Positions 8,993 through 63,807 of a stretch of 64,000 nucleotides of DNA are shown one piece after another (the stretch's first letter is position 1; every line of letters begins with the position of its first letter). Position numbers and translations under genes: made by a program. Source of the stretch: a bacterium (lineage in GTDB: Bacteria > Patescibacteriota > CPR2 > UBA1875 > JAJYID01); assembly GCA_030647205.1 (NCBI GenBank), contig JAUSJO010000002.1, forward strand, positions 113,112-177,111, written 5' to 3'. The notes beneath the pieces are model-generated. The model was given only the letters and a program-made list of their open reading frames with translations, ran no database searches and had not been told where the DNA came from.

Positions 8993-9022
8993 GTCATTAC
9001 CGTACTGAACCTAGTTCAGCAT
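8993..9022 (+). repeat. GTCATT-type hairpin repeat (CTGAAC-cta-GTTCAG)
   Basis: Member of the GTCATTC hairpin family, immediately upstream of 200-bp repeat copy 1. Confidence 0.5.
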
Positions 9023-9048
9023 AAACTCCGGCGAGAAGTCAGTTTCTA

Positions 9049-9264
9049 AATAATTTCCACTTTTTTAGAAAAAGTGGAGTAAAAATTGCGGCTTAGACGG
9101 CATCTTAAAAGTGTCGGATTCTAATTTACTTCAGGTTTGAAAAACCGGACTCCTTCCAGTCGGCCTAAAGGCTAATCGGTCTTTTCAAATCTTCATCAAA
9201 TCTTATCCTCGCTTTTCGATCCGATAGCCGCAAGAGAGCTCCCTTTGAAAAAATCATGCCGGAT
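9049..9264 (+). repeat. ~200-bp intergenic repeat element, copy 1
   Basis: Starts with the palindrome CCACTTTTT-TAG-AAAAAGTGG and ends CCCTTTGAAAAAATCATGCCGGA. About 93% identical to copy 2. Confidence 0.85.
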
Positions 9265-9315
9265 TAAATACAATTGAGGCTGTAATAATTTATTGAAATC
9301 TATTATAATAGCACC

Positions 9316-11391
9316 ATGGCAAGGCATAGAAAACCAGGCAGGCCCAAGGGGTCTACAAATAAAGGGAAAAAAGTCGAACCAACACTAAACCCGAAAATAG
9401 TCGGAGAGATAGTTGCGGTTGGGCTTTTTATTGTTGCGGTAATTCTTTTTGCCGGGGCATTTAACTTTGGCGGGAGATGGGCACTGGCCCTCTTTACAAC
9501 TTTTAGAGATATTTTTGGCTTTGTTTCTTACCTTATGCCATTCATCTTTATTGGTGTCGGGGCAGGACTTTTCTTCCCTGAAAGATTTCCGGTCAACAAA
9601 ATCTCTGCATCCGGGTTTGGCCTTTCCATTATATCTCTTTGCGGGATGTCCCAGATAATTTTCAGCGGACTAAAAAAAGACGGTGGCGGAGGGATGCTTG
9701 GCTCGCTGCTGGAAACGCAGATTTTAAAAATATTTAACTCTCCTGTTTCTTTCCTAATATTTACGGCTACCTTGATTATCGGACTTTTACTTGCTACTGA
9801 CACCTCAATCCGAGATCTTTTTGCACTCTTTAGAAATCAAGAAGAAGGCGAGGAGAAGAAGCCGAAAGAACATATTAAGATTCATGAGGGAGTTGCGGTA
9901 GCAAAAAACGTTTCCGATAAATTTAAGCCTGAGCCAAAAGAGCCGGAAGTAATGATGGTTGGTGACGATAAGGACTGGAAACTGCCGTCAGTTGATTTGC
10001 TTGAGGATACGACTACAAAAGCGGATAGCGGAAATGTGACAGAAAATGCAGCTGTCATCCAGGAGACTCTGGGAAAGTTTAACATAGATGTTGCGATGCG
10101 CGACGTAAATGTCGGGCCAACTGTAACGCAGTATACTTTAAAGCCCAGTGATGGAGTAAAGCTTTCAAAAATTACAAATCTTGACCGGGACCTAGCTCTT
10201 TCTCTCGCCGCTCATCCTATCCGTATTGAAGCACCAATTCCTGGGAAGTCTCTTGTCGGGGTTGAAATACCAAATAAAAAGGCAGCTATAGTTAGACTTA
10301 AAAATATTCTTACGAGTGAGACTTTCAAAGGGCGCCGTTCTAAATTATCAGTCGTTTTGGGGCTAGATGTTTCCGGTCATCCGCAGATTGCCGACATAAC
10401 AAGGATGCCACATCTTCTCATCGCCGGTTCTACCGGTTCCGGTAAATCTGTTTCCATAAATGCGTTACTGCTCAGTCTTCTCTATCAGAATTCACCCAAT
10501 GAGCTGAAACTGATACTAGTTGATCCGAAACGAGTGGAACTTTCTTTATATAATGACCTTCCTCATCTTCTCGCTCCAGTTATAGTTGAGCCTGAGAAAA
10601 CTGTGTCGGCGCTGAAGTGGGCGATTATCGAGATGGAAAGAAGGTATCAGCTTCTTCAATCGGCAGGGAAAAGAAACATTGTCGACTTTAACGCCATCAA
10701 AGGCAAGGAAGGCATGCCTTATATCGTAATTGTGATAGATGAGCTGGCTGACATAATGGCTGTAGCATCGAAGGAAGTTGAAGGTTTGATTTGCCGACTG
10801 GCGCAAATGGCTCGTGCCGTTGGTATCCACCTGGTTCTTGCGACACAGCGCCCATCAGTGGACGTTATTACCGGGCTTATCAAGGCGAATATTGTTACCC
10901 GTATAGCTTTCGCCGTAGCTTCTCAGGTTGACTCTCGCACAATTTTGGATCAGTCGGGAGCCGAAAAGCTCCTTGGAAATGGTGACATGCTTTTCACTTC
11001 AGCCGAATTCTCCAAGCCGAAAAGGATACAGGGAACGTTTATTTCAGAAAAAGAAGTCAAATCTGTTACAGACTTCGTTAAGTCAAATGGGAGTCCTGAA
11101 TATAACAAGGAAGTTCTGGAGCAAAAGCTTGGCGGGGTTAAGGGCGGTGACTTTGATGTGCCTGATGACGATCTTTTCCTTGATGCAGTCGACTGTGTGA
11201 TACGCTCAAACAAAGCATCCTCATCGCTTCTTCAGAGACGACTGAGAATTGGCTATGCCAGAGCGGCGCGGTTGCTTGATTTACTGGAAGAGCGCGGAGT
11301 GGTCGGACCGGCAGATGGCTCAAGGCCTAGAGATGTTTTAATCAGTGATATATCAGAGATAATTGACGAAAAAGAAGAAGTGGAGATCTAG
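9316..11391 (+). CDS. ftsK: DNA translocase FtsK/SpoIIIE
   Basis: N-terminal TM segments, Walker A GSTGSGKSV, C-terminal gamma-domain-like winged helix. Confidence 0.9.
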   Translation: MARHRKPGRPKGSTNKGKKVEPTLNPKIVGEIVAVGLFIVAVILFAGAFNFGGRWALALFTTFRDIFGFVSYLMPFIFIGVGAGLFFPERFPVNKISASGFGLSIISLCGMSQIIFSGLKKDGGGGMLGSLLETQILKIFNSPVSFLIFTATLIIGLLLATDTSIRDLFALFRNQEEGEEKKPKEHIKIHEGVAVAKNVSDKFKPEPKEPEVMMVGDDKDWKLPSVDLLEDTTTKADSGNVTENAAVIQETLGKFNIDVAMRDVNVGPTVTQYTLKPSDGVKLSKITNLDRDLALSLAAHPIRIEAPIPGKSLVGVEIPNKKAAIVRLKNILTSETFKGRRSKLSVVLGLDVSGHPQIADITRMPHLLIAGSTGSGKSVSINALLLSLLYQNSPNELKLILVDPKRVELSLYNDLPHLLAPVIVEPEKTVSALKWAIIEMERRYQLLQSAGKRNIVDFNAIKGKEGMPYIVIVIDELADIMAVASKEVEGLICRLAQMARAVGIHLVLATQRPSVDVITGLIKANIVTRIAFAVASQVDSRTILDQSGAEKLLGNGDMLFTSAEFSKPKRIQGTFISEKEVKSVTDFVKSNGSPEYNKEVLEQKLGGVKGGDFDVPDDDLFLDAVDCVIRSNKASSSLLQRRLRIGYARAARLLDLLEERGVVGPADGSRPRDVLISDISEIIDEKEEVEI

Positions 11392-16587: not shown

Positions 16588-16625
16588 TAAAGGTATCCCG
16601 TCTCCATTATCCCTTACTCCTCTCT

Positions 16626-16977
16626 GTCATTCCCGCGGAGGCGGGAATCTAGACTATAAAATATGAATTCATACTATGTTTATATGATGGCTAGTGATAG
16701 AAATGGTACCCTTTATATTGGGGTAACATCAAATCTCATAGGAAGGGCATTTGAGCATAAAAATGGCGCGTATGGTGGTTTTACCGCAAAGTATAAAGTA
16801 GATAAGTTAGTTTACTTTGAGGAGACAACAAGTATAGAAGAAGCCATCACGAAAGAAAAACAGCTAAAGAAGTGGAATCGTCAATGGAAAATGAGGCTTA
16901 TTGAGGACTTTAATCCCAAGTGGGAGGATTTATCCTATAACATTGCTTGACTAGATCCCCGCCTCCGCGGGAATGAC
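16626..16977 (+). mobile_element. GIY-YIG mini-nuclease cassette bounded by 27-bp inverted hairpin repeats, inserted between recA and recX
   Basis: GTCATTCCCGCGGAGGCGGGAATCTAG at 16626-16653. Its reverse complement (1 mismatch) lies at 16951-16977. Confidence 0.5.
16663..16950 (+). CDS. GIY-YIG nuclease family protein (stand-alone URI domain)
   Basis: YYVYMMASDRNGTLYIGVTSNLIGRAFEHKNG GIY-YIG motif, 95 aa. Confidence 0.85.
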   Translation: MNSYYVYMMASDRNGTLYIGVTSNLIGRAFEHKNGAYGGFTAKYKVDKLVYFEETTSIEEAITKEKQLKKWNRQWKMRLIEDFNPKWEDLSYNIA

Positions 16978-16998
16978 AATTTTTAAGGTATCAATATT

Positions 16999-23428: not shown

Positions 23429-23488
23429 GTCATTCGACTCTGAGTTGAGCTCATCGCTCAGGCTCAAAGAGCGGAGGCGGAAATCCAG
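23429..23488 (+). repeat. GTCATTC-type composite hairpin repeat
   Basis: GTCATTCGACTCTGAG...CTCAG...GAGCGGAGGCGGAAATCCAG, immediately upstream of repeat copy 2. Confidence 0.5.
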
Positions 23489-23495
23489 TTCTTTA

Positions 23496-23708
23496 AATAA
23501 TTTCCACTTTTTTAGAAAAAGTGGAGTAAAAATCGCGGCTTAGACGGCATCTTAAAGTGTTGGACTTCAATTTGCTTCAGGTTTGAAAAACCGGACTCCT
23601 TCCAGTCGGCCTAAAGGCTAATCGGTCTTTTCAAATCCTCATCAAATTTCATCCTCGCTTTTCGATCCGATAGCCGCAAAAGACTTCCTTTGAAAAAATC
23701 ATGCCGGA
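23496..23708 (+). repeat. ~200-bp intergenic repeat element, copy 2
   Basis: Near-identical to copy 1 across ~210 bp. Confidence 0.85.
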
Positions 23709-23760
23709 CGGGAGAGTGTTGTAGGTAGCAATTTACTACTAAATTGGTTAGTATCAAGTT

Positions 23761-24516
23761 ATGAAGAAACGGATCGACATTTTATTAACAGAAAAGGGAT
23801 TAGCCGAGAGTCGGACGAAGGCCCAGGCTTTTTTAATGAGTGGCCAGGTTGAGGTCGATGGGAGAAAAATAGACAAAGCCGGAACACTTGTTGATGATGA
23901 CTCCGAGATCAAGATCAAAGAAAGATTTCCATATGTTTCACGAGGAGCGCTAAAAATCCAAAAGGCTTATCAAGAATTTGGACTAGACTTTAAAGATATG
24001 GTGATTTGCGATATTGGTTCTTCAACAGGAGGATTCACTGATTTTGCACTTCAAAATGGGGCGAAGAAAGTTTTCGCCATCGATGTTGGCTACGGTCAGC
24101 TTGATCAAAAGCTTCGTGAAGATTCTCGGGTAGTTGTGATGGAAAAAACGAATTTTCGAGACATTGATGAGTTACCCGAGAAAATTGACCTCTTTGTCTG
24201 TGACGTATCTTTTATTTCACTTAAAAAAATTATCCTAAAAATTAAAGAGATTGTAGATTATAAAACACAGTGTGTTTTGCTTATAAAGCCTCAGTTTGAG
24301 GTGGGCAAAGAGGTCGCCGATAAATGCAAAGGTGTCATAAAAGACGAGGAAGTTCAGCGAGGAGTTGTAGAGGAGATTGCCAGATTCGCTGAAGACAATG
24401 GATTTCAGGTAAAGGGACTGACGGAGTCACCGATTACCGGTGCAAAGGGGAATAAAGAGTTTCTGATTTGGCTAACCCTCTCTTGTCATTCTGAACTTGA
24501 TTCAGAATCCAGATAA
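23761..24516 (+). CDS. tlyA: TlyA family rRNA 2'-O-methyltransferase
   Basis: S4 domain followed by an FtsJ-like methyltransferase (DIGSSTGGFTD). The last 9 codons are encoded by a hairpin repeat. Confidence 0.85.
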   Translation: MKKRIDILLTEKGLAESRTKAQAFLMSGQVEVDGRKIDKAGTLVDDDSEIKIKERFPYVSRGALKIQKAYQEFGLDFKDMVICDIGSSTGGFTDFALQNGAKKVFAIDVGYGQLDQKLREDSRVVVMEKTNFRDIDELPEKIDLFVCDVSFISLKKIILKIKEIVDYKTQCVLLIKPQFEVGKEVADKCKGVIKDEEVQRGVVEEIARFAEDNGFQVKGLTESPITGAKGNKEFLIWLTLSCHSELDSESR

Positions 24517-24836
24517 ATAAATTCCATGAATTCATATTATGTTTACATCACTGCGAGCCAAAGAAATGGAACGCTATATACCGGCGTAACCAATAACTTA
24601 ATGAAAAGAATCTATGAGCATAAAAACGCCAAGCCCGAAACCTTTACAGGTAAATACCTTACTAACAGATTGGTTTATTTTGAGGAAACAGCCAGTATTG
24701 AAGAAGCAATCAAAAGAGAAAAACAGATAAAAAACTGGAAGCGTAAATGGAAATTAGATTTGATTGAGGAAAATAATCCAGAATGGGAAGATCTTTATGA
24801 TAAGTTCCTGGATTCTGAATCAAGTTCAGAATGACA
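24486..24836 (+). mobile_element. second GIY-YIG cassette bounded by inverted hairpin repeats
   Basis: GTCATTCTGAACTTGATTCAGAATCC at 24486-24512 and its exact reverse complement at 24810-24836. A decayed extra copy lies at 24903-24921. Confidence 0.5.
24526..24834 (+). CDS. GIY-YIG nuclease family protein (paralogue, ~60% identical to 16663-16950)
   Basis: YYVYITASQRNGTLYTGVTNNLMKRIYEHKN motif. C-terminal DSESSSE encoded by the hairpin. Confidence 0.85.
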   Translation: MNSYYVYITASQRNGTLYTGVTNNLMKRIYEHKNAKPETFTGKYLTNRLVYFEETASIEEAIKREKQIKNWKRKWKLDLIEENNPEWEDLYDKFLDSESSSE

Positions 24837-24921
24837 AAACTAGTGAGAAAATGATTTTCTTTAGTGCTATCTCTGAACTGATCGAGGGAGATCTTATTTT
24901 ATGAGTTCAGAATGACAAGGG

Positions 24922-42251: not shown

Positions 42252-44672
42252 TCACTTTCTTAGGGAGTCTATTGCCTTTAAAACGCCGTCTATATCTTGT
42301 TTAGACTCGGGGTCGATGATAGCTATCTTTTTTGCCACTTCGCTTGCTTTGTCTAGTTCCCTTAAATTCATCTCGAACAAAACTATTTGAAAGAGCAGAT
42401 CAGTATCAGAACTTTCTGCTATATATCGATCAATCTCTCTTTCGTAATTTCTCAAAACAATCTCTCGGTAGATAGCAACTCTCTCAAGGGAAATGGCTTT
42501 ACGTGACTCATCCAAGAGACATTGAGTTAGTATGTTCCGTTTGCCATCCACATTTTTTTGATTTAATGATTTTCCCAAATAAATTTTGAAGTTTTTCTCC
42601 GATTTCTCCCTATCTCCTTGTTTTAAGGCTATCTCAAAAAGATGTTTGCTTGTCTCGGGATTCTCGGGGGGGTCGAAGTTTTTAACCTTGTCTAAAACCT
42701 GATAAGCCTTATCGTACTCATTATTATTTGCATAAAAGGTGGCCAGATCATAGTATCCGGAGAGCAGTTTCGGACTTTTTTGCAAAAGTTTTTCATAGTT
42801 TTGAATGGCAATGTTATGATATTCAGCCTTTTTGTCGGAAGCCATTATGTATATTTGTCCCCAGGCGATGAGGGGATATGTTCTAAGGCTCCCGATCTTT
42901 ACTAGCTGTTTTTCTTCTAAGTCAAAGAAAGCCCAAAAAAGTTTGTCGTTTTTTTGTCTTGATAGCAAATCAAATGTATCTAAAACTGCCTTATCCACTT
43001 CTTGTCCGTTCAAGACAGATAAGCTTAAAGATTTTTTATAAAGGTCTACCGCTTCTTCAAAATGCTGTTGATTAACAGCATTGATTGCTCTGTTGAAATA
43101 ATACGAGGCAAGAGCCGGCTTGAAGTTGAATGACCACATAGATACAGTGATCACGTAAAATGCTGTAATGATAGCTATTATTTTCAAGGGTCCGGAGAGA
43201 AATCTGTATCGCTTGAAGTCTATCTTTTTATCGGAAAAGGCGTTTGCCACAAAAGAGGATCTCTCTTTTTTATCATAAAAGTTTACTTCCTTTGTTATAA
43301 AGACCAAAATCAGAAAAAAGAAGATGTAGGAAACTATAGTATCAAAAACGAAAAGATTCTGAATGAAATAAGCAAAAAGCAGACCGACCAAAGAGGCCAT
43401 AGCAAGCGGTGGCGAACGCAGAGCCTGTTTTTTGCCGGAGGTTTCTTTTTTTATAATCTTTAAAAGAGCGAAGGTGACCGCTGCAAAAATACCTAAGTAA
43501 GCTATGAGTCCAACTATGCCTTGGGTGACTGCAGTATCAACTACTATATTGTGAGCTTTATCGAAGTGAGCTCCGCTAAGACCTTCTCCCTCATATAGTT
43601 TTGGATCGTAGTATCTGATGTACGCCATTTTAAAGTTGTCTACCCCCCACCCTAAAATAGGTTTTTCCTTAAAAGCGTCATAAGAAAGTCTCCAAAGAGT
43701 GAAACGCCTGTTTCCTTCAGAAAGGGTAATTTTGGAGACAAACTTAAGGGGAGTGCTTTTGACCAGGCTTGAGTCTTTGTTTTGATAGGCGAAAAGAGTG
43801 AGCATTGATACGATTGCTATAAAAGAAACTGTCACAATAAACAAGCGGCTTCGGAAAAACTTTTGCTTCGTGGAAAATTTTTTATAGACAAAAATAGTAA
43901 AGAAGACAAACATTCCTCCCAAAAGGCCTATCATACCTCCCCTTGTTCCTGTCAGCAGAAGGGTTGTTATAAGAATCCCGAAACACAAAAAATAAATGAT
44001 TTTCTCCAGATTCCGGTTTGTTTTTAATGCTAAAAATAATGAGATGAATATATTGGATATCAAGTAAGAAGCAAAAAAGCTGGGATGCTGCATAGTTCCT
44101 TGGATTCTGCTCATTGTCGCTAAAATACGAAAATTATTCTCAACGATTGCGCTGAAGGAAACCGCCAGCGCAATGATTACAGAGAACTTAAATAGATTTA
44201 TAAAAAATTTATTGTCAAAGACAGTAAAAATAATCGCAAAAAAGATAAAAAGATGAGACAGAGTCAAAAATCCCAGCATTCTCTGGACATCTGAAAAAAA
44301 GCTAAAACTAGGATCGGCGCTAAACATTGTAGAAACGATAACGGAAAACATAAATGTGGCAATAAAGGAAACGATGGCTAGGCTTATCCCACGCAGTTTT
44401 TTCCATGGCTCTCTCCATCTTGGCTTAAAAAGCAGTAGCCACAACCACGGTAGTGCCATGATCTCAATAATGATCCTGAAAGCAAAAACTTTATCCTGAG
44501 AGCCCGTTATTAAAAGACCGGAGGCAACAAGAGGCAACGCAAGGATAGATAATGTACCAATTTTCAGCAGTAAAACACAAAAATATTCTGCACCGAACAT
44601 AGTGCTGTCATTGGTTTTTTTGTTAGGAAAAATCATTAAAATACTTTTCTTAAGGGATTGATTGATAGCCAT
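42252..44672 (-). CDS. O-antigen ligase (Wzy_C) domain membrane protein with C-terminal TPR repeats; candidate pilin O-oligosaccharyltransferase
   Basis: Polytopic N-terminal half with a Wzy_C-like region, then ~300 aa of TPR-like repeats. The ORF-track N-terminal 63 aa are the antisense of the pilin gene and are excluded. Confidence 0.65.
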   Translation of the reverse strand: MAINQSLKKSILMIFPNKKTNDSTMFGAEYFCVLLLKIGTLSILALPLVASGLLITGSQDKVFAFRIIIEIMALPWLWLLLFKPRWREPWKKLRGISLAIVSFIATFMFSVIVSTMFSADPSFSFFSDVQRMLGFLTLSHLFIFFAIIFTVFDNKFFINLFKFSVIIALAVSFSAIVENNFRILATMSRIQGTMQHPSFFASYLISNIFISLFLALKTNRNLEKIIYFLCFGILITTLLLTGTRGGMIGLLGGMFVFFTIFVYKKFSTKQKFFRSRLFIVTVSFIAIVSMLTLFAYQNKDSSLVKSTPLKFVSKITLSEGNRRFTLWRLSYDAFKEKPILGWGVDNFKMAYIRYYDPKLYEGEGLSGAHFDKAHNIVVDTAVTQGIVGLIAYLGIFAAVTFALLKIIKKETSGKKQALRSPPLAMASLVGLLFAYFIQNLFVFDTIVSYIFFFLILVFITKEVNFYDKKERSSFVANAFSDKKIDFKRYRFLSGPLKIIAIITAFYVITVSMWSFNFKPALASYYFNRAINAVNQQHFEEAVDLYKKSLSLSVLNGQEVDKAVLDTFDLLSRQKNDKLFWAFFDLEEKQLVKIGSLRTYPLIAWGQIYIMASDKKAEYHNIAIQNYEKLLQKSPKLLSGYYDLATFYANNNEYDKAYQVLDKVKNFDPPENPETSKHLFEIALKQGDREKSEKNFKIYLGKSLNQKNVDGKRNILTQCLLDESRKAISLERVAIYREIVLRNYEREIDRYIAESSDTDLLFQIVLFEMNLRELDKASEVAKKIAIIDPESKQDIDGVLKAIDSLRK

Positions 44673-44760
44673 AATCAGATATTTATCCACACTAAACTTA
44701 CTGTTTTTACTTGCAAAGTATAACATAACTGGTTTATTATTGCATAAAGAGGGTCTTAAA

Positions 44761-45369
44761 ATGAAAAAAAGTGCATCGCAAAAAGGTTTTACGCTTATTG
44801 AACTAGTTGTTGTTATGACTGTGCTGGCGTTTTTAGCAACACTAGTAGTTGGGGCAATCATTATAGGTCAGAGACAGTCAAAAAATACAAAGTATTTAAA
44901 TGATGCCAAAGATATAAAGGCTGCGCTTGAAGCCTATCGTATAAACGAACAGAGTCGTGGATTTTCGGGGAAGTATCCATATTGTGAGACTTGTGGTGGC
45001 GGCGCGGGGGCTAACTATAGTAGGATTAACGCATATGATCTTTTAAACCCTACCTTAACAACAAAGACAGCAGGACAAGCCGCGGGGGATTTGACGCCTT
45101 ACGTGGGTTCGGACGTCACGGGTCCGGCTGATAGGATATGTTATAGTTCATATGGCACGAGTCCATATGGAGGGGATTACTGGTTTTGGATTATAACCGA
45201 AGAAGAGGCGAAGGATCATGTGTGCCGTTGTCCATCGCCTAATCCGGGTTCCTTAAAGTGTGGTTATTATACTGCTGCCGAAGGCAGTAAGATACACTGT
45301 CCTAAAGCAGTTGCTGACGATCCACAAAAGAGTATAGATAACGGTTGTTTCAAAGAAAAAAGCTTTTAA
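44761..45369 (+). CDS. type IV pilin-like protein with Cys-rich C-terminal domain
   Basis: MKKSASQK-GFTLIELVVVMTVLAFLA prepilin N-terminus. C-terminal domain with ~10 Cys. Confidence 0.75.
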   Translation: MKKSASQKGFTLIELVVVMTVLAFLATLVVGAIIIGQRQSKNTKYLNDAKDIKAALEAYRINEQSRGFSGKYPYCETCGGGAGANYSRINAYDLLNPTLTTKTAGQAAGDLTPYVGSDVTGPADRICYSSYGTSPYGGDYWFWIITEEEAKDHVCRCPSPNPGSLKCGYYTAAEGSKIHCPKAVADDPQKSIDNGCFKEKSF

Positions 45370-50346: not shown

Positions 50347-51306
50347 CTAACTTTTTTTGTGGAAGTTTTTATGTATTTCGCGTAGGCGGGTGTCCGTTAC
50401 ATGGGTGTAGATCTGGGTTGTCGTTATTGATGAGTGTCCGAGCATTGCCTGAACACTTCGGATGTCAGCACCATTAATGAGTAAATCTGTGGCGAAGGAG
50501 TGGCGGAGCATGTGCGGCGTCACTTTTTTTGTTATCCCAACCAGTTTTGCATATTTTGAGACCAGGCGTTGGATGCTTCTCGGTGTGAGGCGCATGTACT
50601 CGCCGTCATCAAGCCCGTCTTTTATCCCTGAAAAATGTATAAATAGTGGTTTGGCATTATCGTCTCTTTTTGAAAGGTAGGTTTTGATCTTTTTTGAAGC
50701 ACTATCTGATAGGAAAACTACACGGTCTTTTCCACCTTTCCCTCTGACATTGAACTCGCCCCTTTCCAGGTTGATTTGATCGCGATTTAGACCCGTGAGC
50801 TCGCTTATTCTTAAGCCCGTAGAAAAAAGAGTTTCAAGAATTGCGCTGTCACGCAAAGTAATGGTTTCTTTCTTGGATGGATGTTTTTCGGGCGCTTGCA
50901 GCAGATCGTCTACTTCGGATATCTCCAAGAATTCGATCTTCTTTCTTTCCATATTGCCGAGCTCGACTTTTTCAGCAGATAAGGACTTAATGTCGCGTTT
51001 GGCGAGGTATTTTAAGAATGCCCGGAGAGCTATAATGTGGTAGTTCTGGGTGATTTTCGCCAGATTTCCCCCGAGTTCTGTATTCAACCGGTTCAGATAA
51101 AGGCGGTATTTGCGGACTAGTTCGGCATTGATCTGCTCAGGTCGTATCTCACGGCTTCGGCCATCTTCGGCAAACTCCAAAAAACGTCTGAGATAGTGGT
51201 CATAGTTTCTGATTGTTAGCTCAGAATGGTTTTTCTCTATTTCACAGTATTCAAGAAAGTCGTTTACAAGATCATTAACGCTAGCCATGTCTATATTGTA
51301 CGACAC
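50347..51306 (-). CDS. xerC: tyrosine recombinase XerC/XerD family
   Basis: LRHSFAT...GHSSITTTQIYTHV catalytic region. N-terminal SAM-like domain. Confidence 0.85.
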   Translation of the reverse strand: MSYNIDMASVNDLVNDFLEYCEIEKNHSELTIRNYDHYLRRFLEFAEDGRSREIRPEQINAELVRKYRLYLNRLNTELGGNLAKITQNYHIIALRAFLKYLAKRDIKSLSAEKVELGNMERKKIEFLEISEVDDLLQAPEKHPSKKETITLRDSAILETLFSTGLRISELTGLNRDQINLERGEFNVRGKGGKDRVVFLSDSASKKIKTYLSKRDDNAKPLFIHFSGIKDGLDDGEYMRLTPRSIQRLVSKYAKLVGITKKVTPHMLRHSFATDLLINGADIRSVQAMLGHSSITTTQIYTHVTDTRLREIHKNFHKKS

Positions 51307-51318
51307 TTTTCTTCCCTT

Positions 51319-51384
51319 GTCATTCCGAGCGTAGCGGAGGAATCCCTTCCCCCGTATGTCATTCCCGCAGAGACGGGAATCTAG
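51319..51384 (+). repeat. two tandem GTCATTC-type hairpins
   Basis: GTCATTCCGAGCGTAGCGGAGGAATCCC and GTCATTCCCGCAGAGACGGGAATCTAG, directly upstream of repeat copy 3. Confidence 0.55.
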
Positions 51385-51395
51385 TCTTTCTTTAA

Positions 51396-51600
51396 ATAGT
51401 ATCCACTTTTTTAGAAAAAGTGGAGTAAAAATTGCGGCTTAGACGGTCTCTCAAAGTATCGTCTGGTTTGCTCTCTCATCTTTAAAAAAATTAACTCGCT
51501 TCTCTCAAACAAAATTCTTTTTAAAGGTTCGTTTACTCCCAGACTTTCTTTTCGAGCCGATAGCCGCAAGCGAGCTCCCTTTGAAAAAATCATGCCGGAT
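51396..51600 (+). repeat. ~200-bp intergenic repeat element, copy 3 (subtype B middle)
   Basis: Same CCACTTTTTTAGAAAAAGTGG start and CCCTTTGAAAAAATCATGCCGGAT end. Middle matches copy 5. Confidence 0.85.
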
Positions 51601-51684
51601 TTCATTGCTAGCTTTTGCAATATTGGTTATAGCTATAATTCCAACAACTTGAACATTTTGGACGATTCCCTCATACTTGTTTAT

Positions 51685-53130
51685 ATGAAAGCGGTTTTTT
51701 GTGGTGTTATTTTGTCCTCATTTGTCCTGGGCGTTTTTTTTGCTCCGTACTTTAGCGTTTCGACGGCAGCGCTCGTTGCACTTTTTGCCATTTTTTTTCT
51801 CTTGAGCCTTTCCCTTATTCCTGAGAAGTGGCTTTGGCTGAGCATGATTGCCATCGGTTTTTTCTTTCTGGGTGTTTTTCGCTTGCAGCAGTATCAAACC
51901 GGTCTTGAAAAAGTTACTTATCCGACAGATAAAGATGTGAATGTTCAGGGGCAGGTTGTGGAGCCGCCGGAGGATACTAAAAAAGCAACAAAGGTTGTGA
52001 TCCAGGATCAAGATAAAAAGGCAAAAATTCTGCTTATTTTGAGGCCGTTTTCAGGGATAAAGTATGGCGATTATCTGGCAGTTGAAGGGAAAATGGTCCG
52101 GCCGGAAAGCGAAAGTCTCAAAAACAACCTTCTTACAAAAGGGATTTCATACCAAATGCTTTTTCCGAACATAGAAAAGATTAAGACAGCCGGAAACCTG
52201 AGTTTGCAAATGCAGGCTAAAAACTTGCTGTATGGTGTGAGAAATCGTTTTGAAAGCAGTATAAACAGTATTTTGCCCGAACCGGAAAGCTCGTTTTTAG
52301 CGGGGCTTCTTCTTGGGATCAAAAGAAACTTGCCCGACTGGCTGATGGAAGATTTGCAAAAAAGTGGGACAACTCACATCATCGCTCTTTCCGGATTTAA
52401 TATTACTGTGATTGTGATGGGACTGCGTCTGATGTTTTCTAAAAAGTCGGCGAAAATGAGTTTCTATTTGCCACTCATAGCCATTGCCGGATTCGTGGTA
52501 ATGACCGGTGCGCAAAGTTCGGTGGTGAGAGCCGGCATCATGGGTGCGATGATGATGCTAGCGTACCGTGTCGGGCGCCAGTCGTCAGCTACGATGGCGA
52601 TAGTTATAACGGCAGCGGCAATGATATTTTATAACCCGATGATACTTAGATTTGATGTTGGTTTCCAGCTTTCATTTGCGGCATTTTTGGGAATTATCTA
52701 CCTGGGACCGATAATCCGAGAGATTTTACCCGGCAAAAGAGAGTCGTTGAAGGAGGTTCTCGCCATGACGCTTGGGGCGCAGGTAATGGCGTATCCGATA
52801 ATTCTCTACTACTTCGGCAACTTTTCGCTTATCGCACTCGCAACTAATTTAATAATTCTGCCATTTATTCCCTTTGTGATGCTCATCGGATTTATAAGCA
52901 CAGTTCTGGGCATGATATGGTCGTATCTGGGATATGTGCTATCGTGGACGGTGTTTTTTGCCCTGAGGGTAATCATCGGCGCAATCCACTTCTCTGCTTC
53001 CCTGCCTTTTGCATCTCTTGATGGTATAAACATCTCGCCGACCAATATGGCCATTTGTTACATCATAGTTCTAGAGCTGATATTTATTTATAAAGCTATA
53101 AAGAGAAAGCGCCTTTCAAATGGAAGATAA
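51685..53130 (+). CDS. comEC: ComEC/Rec2 competence membrane channel (DUF4131 + competence domain; no fused MBL domain)
   Basis: Polytopic. HIIALSGFNITVIV and SSVVRAGIMGAMMM are competence-domain signatures. Start chosen at MKAVFCGV. Confidence 0.8.
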   Translation: MKAVFCGVILSSFVLGVFFAPYFSVSTAALVALFAIFFLLSLSLIPEKWLWLSMIAIGFFFLGVFRLQQYQTGLEKVTYPTDKDVNVQGQVVEPPEDTKKATKVVIQDQDKKAKILLILRPFSGIKYGDYLAVEGKMVRPESESLKNNLLTKGISYQMLFPNIEKIKTAGNLSLQMQAKNLLYGVRNRFESSINSILPEPESSFLAGLLLGIKRNLPDWLMEDLQKSGTTHIIALSGFNITVIVMGLRLMFSKKSAKMSFYLPLIAIAGFVVMTGAQSSVVRAGIMGAMMMLAYRVGRQSSATMAIVITAAAMIFYNPMILRFDVGFQLSFAAFLGIIYLGPIIREILPGKRESLKEVLAMTLGAQVMAYPIILYYFGNFSLIALATNLIILPFIPFVMLIGFISTVLGMIWSYLGYVLSWTVFFALRVIIGAIHFSASLPFASLDGINISPTNMAICYIIVLELIFIYKAIKRKRLSNGR

Positions 53131-54020: not shown

Positions 54021-54044
54021 GTCATTCTGGCTTGTCCAGAAGCA
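54021..54044 (+). repeat. GTCATTC-type hairpin
   Basis: GTCATTCTGGCTTGTCCAGAAGCA, upstream of repeat copy 4. Confidence 0.45.
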
Positions 54045-54052
54045 TCTCTTTA

Positions 54053-54275
54053 AAATAGTTTCCACTTTTTTAGAAAAAGTGGAGTAAAAATCGCGACTTA
54101 TGGCGGCGACAAAGTGTCGGATTTCAGTTCGCTCAGGTTTGAAAAAATGAACTCGCTAGATCGCTCAGACAACATTATTTTCAAAATCTTCGTTCACTTT
54201 ATCCTCGCTTTGTCTTCGATAGTCGCATTAAGAGATCACTTGGCTCATCTTCCCTTTGAAAAAATCGTGCCGGGG
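54053..54275 (+). repeat. ~200-bp intergenic repeat element, copy 4 (divergent)
   Basis: Conserved 5' palindrome and 3' CCCTTTGAAAAAATCGTGCCGGGG. Arm variant GCGACT...AGTCGC. Confidence 0.8.
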
Positions 54276-54341
54276 AGGCCGTAAACATTTTACTTTACTA
54301 ATATATTCCATTATAGTTATAATGTTTAAAAGGAGAAAACA

Positions 54342-61354: not shown

Positions 61355-61377
61355 TGTATAATTCTGACCTCTCTCTG

Positions 61378-61430
61378 TCATTCTGACGAAGGAAGAATCT
61401 AGATCCTTCGTGCCTCAGGATGACGAAGTA
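61378..61430 (+). repeat. GTCATTC-type hairpin repeat after ruvB
   Basis: GTCATTCTGACGAAGGAAGAATCTAG plus the complementary TCCTTCGTGCCTCAGGATGACGAAG. Confidence 0.5.
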
Positions 61431-62729: not shown

Positions 62730-63141
62730 CTTAGGTCAGAAGTTAGGTGAGCAGCTTAAGGGAGGTGAGGTGGTTGCTCTTTATGGTGATCTCGGCGGAG
62801 GAAAAACGCAGTTCACAAAAGGAATTGCCAAGGGACTAGGAATAGAAGATGATATTTTCTCTCCTACGTTTGTGATTCGCAGAGATTGTAAGGGCAAAGA
62901 GTTGAGCTTGCTTCACTATGATTTTTATAGGTTTGAAGTACCGGATGAAGAACTGATTGAAAGTTTAGAAGAAGGGATAAATCCTGAAAATGTGACGGTT
63001 ATAGAGTGGGCGGAAAGAGTTGAAAAATATTTGCCAGAAAACACGATTAAAGTTGTATTCCGTTACATCTCAGAAAGTGAAAGAGAAATAGAGATTGAAG
63101 GTAATGGTTTTAGTGCTGTCATTCCGACCGACCCTACTTAA
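62692..63141 (+). CDS. tsaE: tRNA t6A biosynthesis ATPase TsaE
   Basis: VALYGDLGGGKTQFTKGIAKGLGI P-loop. C-terminal codons VIPTDPT lie within a GTCATTC hairpin. Confidence 0.85.
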   Translation: MKIVSKSSDETVSLGQKLGEQLKGGEVVALYGDLGGGKTQFTKGIAKGLGIEDDIFSPTFVIRRDCKGKELSLLHYDFYRFEVPDEELIESLEEGINPENVTVIEWAERVEKYLPENTIKVVFRYISESEREIEIEGNGFSAVIPTDPT

Positions 63142-63162
63142 GTAGCGAGTAGAGGAATCCCT
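63118..63162 (+). repeat. GTCATTCCGA-type hairpin overlapping the tsaE 3' end
   Basis: GTCATTCCGACCGACCCTACTTAAGTAGCGAGTAGAGGAATCCC, related to the hairpin at 51319. Confidence 0.5.
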
Positions 63163-63172
63163 TTCTTTCAAA

Positions 63173-63352
63173 ATTATTTTCCACTTTTTTAGAAAAAGTG
63201 GAGTAAAAATCGCGACTTAGACGGTCTCTCAAAGTATCGTCTGGTTCGTTTTCTCATGTTTAAAAAAATTAACTCGCTAATCGCTCAAACAAAATTATTT
63301 TTAAAGGATCGTTCACTCCCAGACTTTCTTTTCGAGCCGATAGTCGCATCAA
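63173..63352 (+). repeat. ~200-bp intergenic repeat element, copy 5 (subtype B, truncated 3' end)
   Basis: 5' palindrome and middle match copy 3. Arm variant GCGACT...AGTCGC. Lacks the terminal CCCTTTGAAAAAATC box. Confidence 0.8.
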
Positions 63353-63402
63353 AGTGATGTTGCCTTTTTCTTGAAATCGCAAGAAAGTGTTAAAATAAAG
63401 TT

Positions 63403-63807
63403 ATGAAAAATAGTTTAGTTATAGATACGTCAGATAGAGTGGCTCGGCTTGGGATTTTTCAGGATGATAAGCTGGCTGACAAAATCGAGTGGGAAGCACA
63501 TCGGGAACTTTCAAAGACATTTTATACAAAATTGGATGAGCTTTTGGGGCGGAATAGTTTAAGCTGTAACGATTTGAGTTCTATAATCGTCGTTCGTGGA
63601 CCGGGATCTTTCACCGGGCTTAGGATTGGCATAGTTATAGTAAATGCATTCTCATATTCACTGGGTGTTGAAACTGCCGGTGTGATTCAAAAAGAGAAGA
63701 TGCCTTTAGAAGAGATTTATAATGTCGGCAAAAAAGATCTCAAAAAGGGGCAAATTATCGAGCCGTTTTACGGTCGCGAACCGAACATCACGACCAAAAA
63801 GAAGTAA
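63403..63807 (+). CDS. tsaB: tRNA t6A biosynthesis protein TsaB (short form)
   Basis: LVIDTSDRVARLGIF...GPGSFTGLRIGIVIVNAF N-terminal ASKHA motifs. Confidence 0.8.
   Translation: MKNSLVIDTSDRVARLGIFQDDKLADKIEWEAHRELSKTFYTKLDELLGRNSLSCNDLSSIIVVRGPGSFTGLRIGIVIVNAFSYSLGVETAGVIQKEKMPLEEIYNVGKKDLKKGQIIEPFYGREPNITTKKK

Follow-up and report, generated by a model that had tools for sequence, protein, structure and literature searches.

SRM-like hairpins at the 5′ edge of a structured 200-bp repeat: probable mosaic inserts in a WS5-like genome

Five copies of a structured 200-bp repeat are present in a 64-kb stretch of a bacterial genome (contig JAUSJO010000002.1, positions 113,112 to 177,111; hereafter the window). 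Each has at its 5′ edge one or two short elements, which begin with GTCATT and resemble the hairpin motifs of the Ssn nuclease system. Our preferred reading, held with moderate confidence and drawn from sequence comparison, is that each of the five loci holds an intergenic insert, a mosaic of two independent repeat families, with the hairpin motifs (called SRMs below) accumulating at the 5′ edge of the repeat. Matches to the ComEC protein of the window have a candidate division WS5 bacterium as the nearest named relative (69% identity), and Patescibacteria as more distant ones. Loci L001 to L027, used for comparison, come from related metagenomic genomes, metagenome contigs or IMG/VR contigs.

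Exactly five occurrences of the repeat core, CCACTTTTTTAGAAAAAGTGGAGTAAAAAT (30 nt), were found, at positions 9057, 23504, 51403, 54062, and 63181, and all are on the + strand; by chance, none would be expected. Repeat finding and profile searches delimit the copies to approximately 9038–9268, 23487–23715, 51384–51604, 54045–54281, and 63166–63367, and an nhmmer profile search detected no sixth copy in the window. GTCATT starts lie at 8993 (as GTCATTA) and, all as GTCATTC, at 23429, 51319, 51358, 54021, and 63118. The SRM-like elements end 0–5 nt 5′ of the repeat homology, and the intact ones 17–20 nt before the palindrome of the repeat. The hairpin elements and repeat copies are, in order of position:

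8993–9042, + strand: decayed SRM-like element of a long type, GTCATTA...GAAGTCAG, with the inner hairpin CTGAAC-CTA-GTTCAG preserved
9043–9268, + strand: repeat copy 1, with leader, head (9056–9078), linker, rod (9087–9232) and tail CCCTTTGAAAAAATCATGCCGG; upstream of ftsK (9316)
23429–23488, + strand: decayed or interrupted SRM-like element, GTCATTCGAC...GGCGGAAATCCAG, z −1.9
23489–23715, + strand: repeat copy 2, with head (23503–23525), rod to 23678 and tail; between efp and a tlyA-like gene
51319–51346, + strand: SRM-like element GTCATTCCGAGCGTAGCGGAGGAATCCC, 5-bp outer stem
51358–51384, + strand: intact SRM GTCATTCCCGCAGAGACGGGAATCTAG, 7-bp stem, z −3.0
51385–51604, + strand: repeat copy 3, with head (51402–51424), rod to 51568 and tail; between the divergent xerD and comEC
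54021–54046, + strand: SRM GTCATTCTGGCTTGTCCAGAAGCATC, 6-bp stem, z −3.4
54047–54281, + strand: repeat copy 4, with head (54061–54083), rod to 54227 and tail; between metallo-beta-lactamase and response-regulator genes
61377–61424, no strand assigned: REPIN-like SRM doublet, two inverted halves with no gene between them and no repeat adjacent, z −3.8
63118–63162, + strand: SRM with a nested hairpin, GTCATTCCGACCGAC..CTACTTAAGTAG..GAGGAATCCC; takes the place of the 3′ end of tsaE, which it overlaps
63163–63367, + strand: repeat copy 5, with head (63180–63202), rod to 63348 and no tail; separates tsaE from tsaB

The initial annotation had placed a GTCATT-initiated hairpin beside every copy of the repeat. 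An element with this start was indeed found at the 5′ edge of all five copies, and SRMs likewise adjoin every further copy found in related metagenomic genomes. As a hairpin, it is intact at three of the five; at copies 1 and 2 the elements starting at 8993 and 23429 have a decayed outer stem.

The heptamer GTCATTC alone is mildly enriched in the window (15 seen versus 8 expected, approximately 2-fold), and the signal is in its position, not in its count. Co-occurrence statistics, which had been proposed as a check, were obtained for the window and its relatives with a hairpin detector, for which [GA]TCAT[TG][CA] had to be present, with 5 bp or more of stem following GTC and a C next to the 3′ end of the stem. 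An intact same-strand hairpin ended at most 60 nt 5′ of 9 of the 11 complete copies across genomes, the two misses being the decayed elements at copies 1 and 2. For a random intergenic position and strand, the probability is 0.02–0.14, depending on the locus. Furthermore, eight of the 72 intergenic gaps in the window contain a + strand hairpin and five contain the repeat, and the two sets have five gaps in common (hypergeometric P ~4e-6, or ~2e-4 without 8993). A chance meeting of two elements that are both common in intergenic DNA might be suspected from the frequency of SRMs in the lineage (approximately eight hairpin loci in the 20.7 kb of L015) and from the weak enrichment of the bare heptamer. 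However, given these probabilities, and with strand, side and near-constant distance the same in every copy across at least six genomes, a chance origin of the co-occurrence is excluded.

In the WS5-like lineage, 13 copies of the repeat were found, partial ones included, and each has between one and five tandem SRMs directly 5′ of it. All hairpins are on the 5′ side, and none was found at the 3′ side of the repeat copies. The hairpins themselves far outnumber the repeat and are mostly solitary or in doublets; they occur without it around two ssn genes, in the doublet at 61377, and throughout L015, which has no repeat. The association is therefore non-random and one-way, in that the repeat is always found with SRMs in this lineage and most SRMs are found without the repeat.

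The Ssn family (cd10448) comprises small nucleases of the GIY-YIG type, with binding and cleavage confined to single-stranded DNA (ssDNA) beside a hairpin repeat (Chenal 2025, PMC11893778). This repeat was named NTS in Neisseria (consensus CGTCATTCCCGCGMAVGCGGGAATCYRG) and SRM in general. The NTS is active in one orientation only, and SsnA cuts it on the 5′ side, directly next to the hairpin. Cleavage depends critically on the three bases that precede the palindrome (GTC), and binding on the C that follows it (PMC11893778).

The window hairpins have a comparable frame, consisting of a pyrimidine-rich leader, GTC, a stem ATTCC../..GGAAT with a variable interior, C, and YAG. Identity to the NTS consensus reaches 26/28 at 16625–16652, 25/28 at 16951–16978 (minus strand) and 24/28 at 51357–51384; the other window subtypes have only the frame in common with it. 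GTC 5′ and C 3′ of the stem are present at 16626, 24485, 51319, 51358, 61377, and 63118. At 54021 the 3′ part of the frame is altered (CCAGAAGCATC), and at 8993 and 23429 the frame is decayed. The outer stems at 51319 and 63118 are just 5 bp (ATTCC/GGAAT) around a longer interior. As units, SRMs bring their own pyrimidine leader (CTCTYCT-GTC) and stack head-to-tail.

Several subtypes recur among genomes. The decayed element at 8993–9042 matches 42/50 positions of an intact subtype of L001, GTCATTCCCGCACTGAATC..TTCAGCATAAACTCCGACGGGAATCCAG, which is also present in L015 and L018, and its inner hairpin has been maintained through compensatory change. The 54021 subtype recurs in L001, L015, L016, and L018, with a close variant 5′ of the L007 repeat, and the 63118 subtype is also found at L001 5776 and L012 1133. 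Gene-less inverted doublets like that at 61377–61424, with a spacing of approximately 0–20 nt, are found at L012 2641–2710, L015 20444–20512, L016 13662–13730, and L019 7993–8090. Such doublets may be REPIN-like, or may be cassettes left after the loss of ssn. One solitary long-loop SRM (24872–24916, minus strand) lies directly after the stop codon of the minus-strand gene ychF; among the minus-strand SRMs found in the window, it alone is not paired, as an inverted partner, with one on the + strand.

Two of the SRM-bearing loci in the window enclose a nuclease gene:

16626–16977, + strand: ssn cassette 1, with SRM 16626–16652 (+), GIY-YIG gene 16663–16950 and inverted SRM 16951–16977 (−)
24485–24916, + strand: ssn cassette 2, with SRM 24485–24512 (+), GIY-YIG gene 24526–24834, inverted SRM 24808–24835 (−) and the extra minus-strand SRM 24872–24916

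The encoded proteins, Ssn1 and Ssn2 (95 and 102 amino acids), have PF01541 as their single domain (E 5e-16 for cassette 1) and are 66% identical to each other. In tblastn, Ssn1 matched a single place per N. gonorrhoeae record (53.9% identity, E 5e-26, 94% query coverage), and this locus is itself bounded by inverted NTS copies. Searches with Ssn1 of NCBIfam and of PDB sequences returned no useful match. An additional motif-flanked ssn cassette is present in L018. Based on the identity to the NTS, the GTC...C frame, and the homology of Ssn1 to an NTS-flanked locus, we class the hairpins as NTS/SRM-like motifs and the two open reading frames as ssn homologues, that is, as putative ssDNA nucleases.

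The resemblance to the published system thus covers the frame with up to 26/28 identity, non-palindromic flanks that set the orientation, many mostly intergenic motif copies, and a small single-domain GIY-YIG gene between inverted motifs. There are also differences. The host is WS5/CPR-like, and Patescibacteria are not mentioned in the main text of the Ssn paper; nor are NIME, RS elements or any fixed partner repeat (PMC11893778). Moreover, many subtypes have long nested interiors, and the published pattern misses them.

The 200-bp repeat is a separate, asymmetric, structured element, distinct from the hairpins. It begins with an AT-rich, TCTTTAAATAATT-like leader, followed by the head, a perfect palindrome with 10-bp arms (TCCACTTTTT-TAG-AAAAAGTGGA), and by the linker G(T/C)AAAAA(T/G). 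Next comes the rod, an imperfect foldback of approximately 135 nt with the closing pairs GCGRCT/AGYCGC, and copies 1–4 end in the tail CCCTTTGAAAAAATCATGCCGG. Head and rod are predicted to fold in every copy (−39 to −65 kcal/mol). A consensus fold derived from eight copies (four genomes) comprises 40 pairs; 95.9% of the cells are paired, and compensatory changes are seen at eight pairs. When the partner was slid by 1–3 columns, pairing dropped to 43–58%. The head occurs in the variants TCCAC/GTGGA, TCTAC/GTAGA, TCAAC/GTTGA, and CTGC/GCAG, always with complementarity kept, also in distant copies. Two head variants occur within one genome, which favours a nucleic-acid hairpin over a protein half-site. 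Since the consensus contains approximately 10 G.U cells versus 1 C.A cell, the fold belongs to the + (sense) strand, as RNA or ssDNA.

In a second subtype of the repeat (L018, L001b), the tail serves as the 3′ arm of the rod. Therefore, the window copies hold two alternative 3′ arms, and L007 holds three. Modularity of this kind is typical of mosaic repeats. Together, the two arms of the rod constitute a long, imperfect inverted repeat, for which neither a target-site duplication nor an autonomous partner was seen, the boundaries being blurred at approximately 70% genome divergence.

Other roles for the repeat were considered and set aside. A DNA-uptake sequence was rejected, as AAAAGTGGA occurs just two times outside the five heads. 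A sigma-70 promoter as the main role is contradicted by the lack of a consistent −35/−10 in the conserved part and by the native promoters downstream. For a regulon leader or riboswitch, the downstream genes are functionally unrelated, and the native promoters again lie 3′ of the insert. Rfam gave no match to the repeat: a search of the whole window at the gathering threshold, and of 51250–51700 at E ≤ 10, returned one tRNA and sub-threshold noise.

Comparison with relatives shows that the composites are insertions. A search for empty sites in related strains had been suggested, and orthologous sites without hairpin and without repeat were found. The gap between the metallo-beta-lactamase and response-regulator genes measures 41–80 nt in six relatives, with neither element; in the window it holds an insert of 340 nt, with the native TATAAT..AAGGAG..ATG immediately 3′ of it. 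Synteny around comEC is kept in relatives, and the xerD/comEC gap of L011 is 62 nt long and has neither element; the native comEC promoter-like sequence CTTGAAC..CATAMT is still present 3′ of the window insert. In L010 and L013, tsaE and tsaB overlap (ATGA), and in the window, L012 (the WS5 genome) and L016 they are split by SRM and repeat, each time with a different SRM subtype and diverged rods. Both parts are missing from the orthologous sites, and the composite is thus DNA gained by insertion. It occupies the stretch from an upstream stop codon (or a divergent promoter) to the native promoter of the downstream gene, and is not the source of that promoter. At 63118–63141 the SRM hairpin also supplies the last codons of tsaE, a gene that in insert-free relatives ends in ..N K E L with the ATGA overlap with tsaB.

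The initial annotation had offered two explanations for an association that is constant despite differing hairpin sequences, namely that both belong to a larger modular unit, or that one of them inserts preferentially beside the other. The choice between these two was well framed, and our data lean toward preferential insertion or turnover. In the first case, hairpin and 200-bp element would form one non-autonomous mobile unit, with the SRM as terminal recognition hairpin and Ssn nicking 5′ of it. The whole block would be copied or moved to new intergenic sites, like RAYT-mobilised REPINs or the ends of IS200/IS605 elements. Empty orthologous sites that lack both parts together would agree with such a unit, and strand-specific folding would suit an ssDNA intermediate. 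Furthermore, the typical gene arrangement NTS-ssnA-NTS has been remarked on as insertion-sequence-like (PMC11893778), and copy 4 and the L007 copy, which lie at non-orthologous loci of two different genomes, are alike both in the type of the rod (79%) and in the subtype of the SRM (81%).

However, four pairs of copies (1 and 2, 3 and 5, and each of 3 and 5 with L001a) have rods that are 91–95% identical and SRMs that differ in subtype and number, being 50–71% identical. Several SRM subtypes thus stand 5′ of near-identical rods, which favours SRM accumulation at the 5′ edge over strict co-mobility. Moreover, the 3′ side has no SRM or other defined terminus, head-rod elements without SRMs exist elsewhere (on two soil contigs), and no strand-transfer enzyme was identified, the Y1 transposase of relatives being absent from the window. 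We therefore consider a single mobile unit unlikely; occasional co-mobility of the block may occur.

Several observations weigh against our preferred reading of two independent families. The pair of copy 4 and L007, the sole one with both rod type and SRM subtype in common, is one of them, and the empty sites fit co-insertion as one unit equally well. Among the orthologous gaps compared, neither an SRM-only nor a repeat-only state was found, so that these sites do not resolve the order of arrival. At approximately 70% genome divergence, no target-site duplication or clean boundary was definable. Complete copies with a clear neighbour are all co-oriented with the downstream gene, which a transcription-linked role would give as well. 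The published SRM pattern HGTCWYN(0-2)YYVSBRHN(0-5)WNVSBRGN(0-2)RNCYNB has 0 matches in the window, versus 0.2 expected in shuffles; it fixes loop-side positions that differ from those of the window hairpins. Finally, we know of no strand-transfer activity in GIY-YIG nucleases.

If the loci are mosaics of two families, head-rod elements would have entered the stretch that separates an upstream stop codon from the promoter of the downstream gene itself. Afterwards, SRM units, spreading as discrete subfamilies, would build up and be exchanged at the T-rich 5′ edge, where the leader TCTTTCTTT of the repeat resembles the pyrimidine leader of the SRMs. A plausible route would be nicking by Ssn in transiently single-stranded DNA, and repair by copying from other SRM-bearing loci. 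This nick-and-copy step is suggested by the published ssDNA specificity of Ssn, and by the + strand of the window being G-rich and leading-sense. The minus-strand SRM at 24872–24916 follows a minus-strand gene, and orientation may therefore track transcription instead. The outcome would be a mosaic resembling NIMEs or BIMEs, and not a single functional transcript.

Another explanation is that the composite functions as RNA and marks the boundary between transcription units. In this case, SRM hairpin and head would serve the upstream gene as a terminator or 3′-end stabiliser, and the rod would be a structured 3′-UTR, an RNase III substrate or a small RNA with effects on neighbouring genes. The co-orientation of the copies with flanking genes, their position right after upstream stop codons and before native promoters, and the G.U pairs and compensatory changes on the sense strand would all fit such a role. 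In addition, terminator-like scores were obtained for the SRM at 51361–51380 and for the head when read on the minus strand, and on giant-virus contigs heads lie 0–50 nt after stop codons. On the other hand, the neighbours are functionally unrelated (ftsK, tlyA-like, comEC, response regulator, tsaB), and relatives do without the insert. With copy 3 placed between divergent promoters, and two copies arranged tail-to-tail in L018, transcription from the neighbours is not guaranteed. The head has no U-tract on the sense strand, in a genome with canonical terminators, there is no Rfam match, and SsnA does not act on RNA (PMC11893778). An RNA-level boundary module appears improbable to us.

Among known systems, the composites appear closest to the Neisseria intergenic mosaic elements (NIMEs) and to the BIMEs of E. 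coli, and the hairpins and nuclease genes appear to be new members of the Ssn/SRM system. In NIMEs, dRS3 elements stand on both sides of RS repeats of 50–150 bp, often in alternating arrays, and NIMEs were stated to be unseen outside Neisseria (Bentley 2007, PMC1797815). As in NIMEs, hairpins of the same family (dRS3 is the NTS core) lie beside longer intergenic repeats of 50–200 bp, with variable hairpin numbers per array and as dynamic mosaics. In contrast to the two-sided dRS3 of NIMEs, the window hairpins are on the 5′ side only, and the composites are thus not NIMEs in the defined sense; in L001, tandem SRM arrays were seen without an intervening RS-type unit. Furthermore, NIMEs involve more than 100 RS families and cluster near surface-antigen genes, whereas here one structured, covarying partner family with subtypes adjoins housekeeping genes.

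The REP/BIME and REPIN-RAYT systems of Escherichia and Pseudomonas link short palindromes of defined orientation to a single-copy gene for a nuclease or transposase, which has inverted palindrome copies on either side. Doublets (61377–61424), mosaics with other motifs and the logic of ssDNA hairpins are features that the window has in common with them. The enzyme here is a GIY-YIG nuclease and not an HUH Y1 transposase, and the partner is a 200-bp foldback instead of short linker motifs. The same systems were brought in as an analogy in the Ssn paper (PMC11893778).

Genes for Y1_Tnp (PF01797) proteins of 225–252 amino acids adjoin xerD in several relatives (L015 8177–8914, L016 1395–2132, L017 1048–1785, L018 464–1222, and L019 1634–2311), and that of L015 lies between CCAAGG..CCTTGG hairpins, in a RAYT-like manner. 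A RAYT/Y1 transposase was rejected as mobiliser, as tblastn with these proteins found no homologue in the window.

Correia elements (CREE), ERIC, RUP, and BOX are foldback repeats of a MITE-like type. The rod resembles them as an imperfect inverted repeat of 100–200 bp, which is intergenic, often upstream of genes, made of modular subtypes, and variably present between relatives. It differs in that the window element is asymmetric, with a head palindrome separate from the rod, in its strict polarity tied to the SRM, and in that no target-site duplication or cognate transposase was found. CREE were described together with the NIMEs (PMC1797815).

A scan of genome contigs gave one locus only, and a scan of metagenomes gave one true relative plus head-only matches. 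Two soil contigs, L005 (640–860) and L008 (620–836, minus strand), have the same head and linker, the identity over the 24-nt search pattern being by construction, and a different GC-rich rod (−77 to −79 kcal/mol). No GTCAT or SRM was found near these head-rod elements. An exact scan of IMG/VR with TCNACTTTTTTNNAAAAAGTNGARYAAAAA returned nine matches in seven contigs (L021–L027), including a GVMAG giant-virus bin. The N positions of these matches were always complementary C..G, and two control patterns with a different clamp gave zero IMG/VR matches. In the giant-virus-like contigs (L021–L027, and L002–L004 and L006 from metagenomes), head and linker (30 nt) are near-identical and often in tandem, with no long rod and no SRM. 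These heads are located just after upstream stop codons and 70–140 nt before the next ATG.

A head common to bacteria and giant viruses may reflect a shared signal, transfer or convergence. A far-reaching and, from such matches, very doubtful idea is that head-rod elements are autonomous cross-domain mobile or regulatory DNA, for which the SRM cleavage site would be a docking or mobilisation point in Ssn-carrying bacteria. If true, a GIY-YIG ssDNA nuclease would for the first time be linked to an element that carries cargo.

The first description of Ssn nucleases and of their hairpin motifs dates from 2025. Here the motif is found almost unchanged in a lineage far from Proteobacteria, and NIME-like mosaics are not confined to Neisseria. 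Motif subtypes common to several genomes, occupied and empty orthologous sites, and a fixed polar partnership with one repeat make this a tractable natural system for questions such as how SRMs spread and how they affect neighbouring DNA. Genes for ComEC and for components of type IV pili lie in the window, so that competence of the host for the uptake of ssDNA may be presumed.

The practical effect is modest and concerns short-read assemblies and gene calls, with false N-terminal extensions and altered C-termini in the latter. The repeat breaks assemblies: Logan short-read contigs of the same organism (SRR13727527) begin inside repeat copies 2 and 5 (L009 1–153 and L014 1–89, respectively). 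The longest comEC open reading frame starts at an ATG at 51592, within the repeat tail (ATCATGCCGG). The database protein, which is 100% identical to ComEC of the window and has 481 amino acids, starts at 51685, and the first 31 codons (51592–51684) are therefore a spurious extension.

A −10-like hexamer approximately 6 nt before the ATG, with no Shine-Dalgarno sequence, was seen at 9295–9318, 51283–51323, and 63385–63405 in the window, and at 9990–10003 in L011, which suggests that such genes have leaderless mRNAs. For xerD, an ATG near 51290 is the probable start rather than the GTG at 51306, and the TGTCAT of the SRM gives xerD a −35-like ATGACA on the minus strand.

A few SRM-like hairpins are located inside genes. 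One, ATCATTGCGCTGG..CAGCGCAATC, with a perfect 9-bp stem, lies at 44145–44177 on the minus strand within the large coding gene at 42252–44861. Others lie inside called prepilin-peptidase (A24) genes, at L012 17496–17519 and L015 3665–3769, possibly as in-frame insertions.

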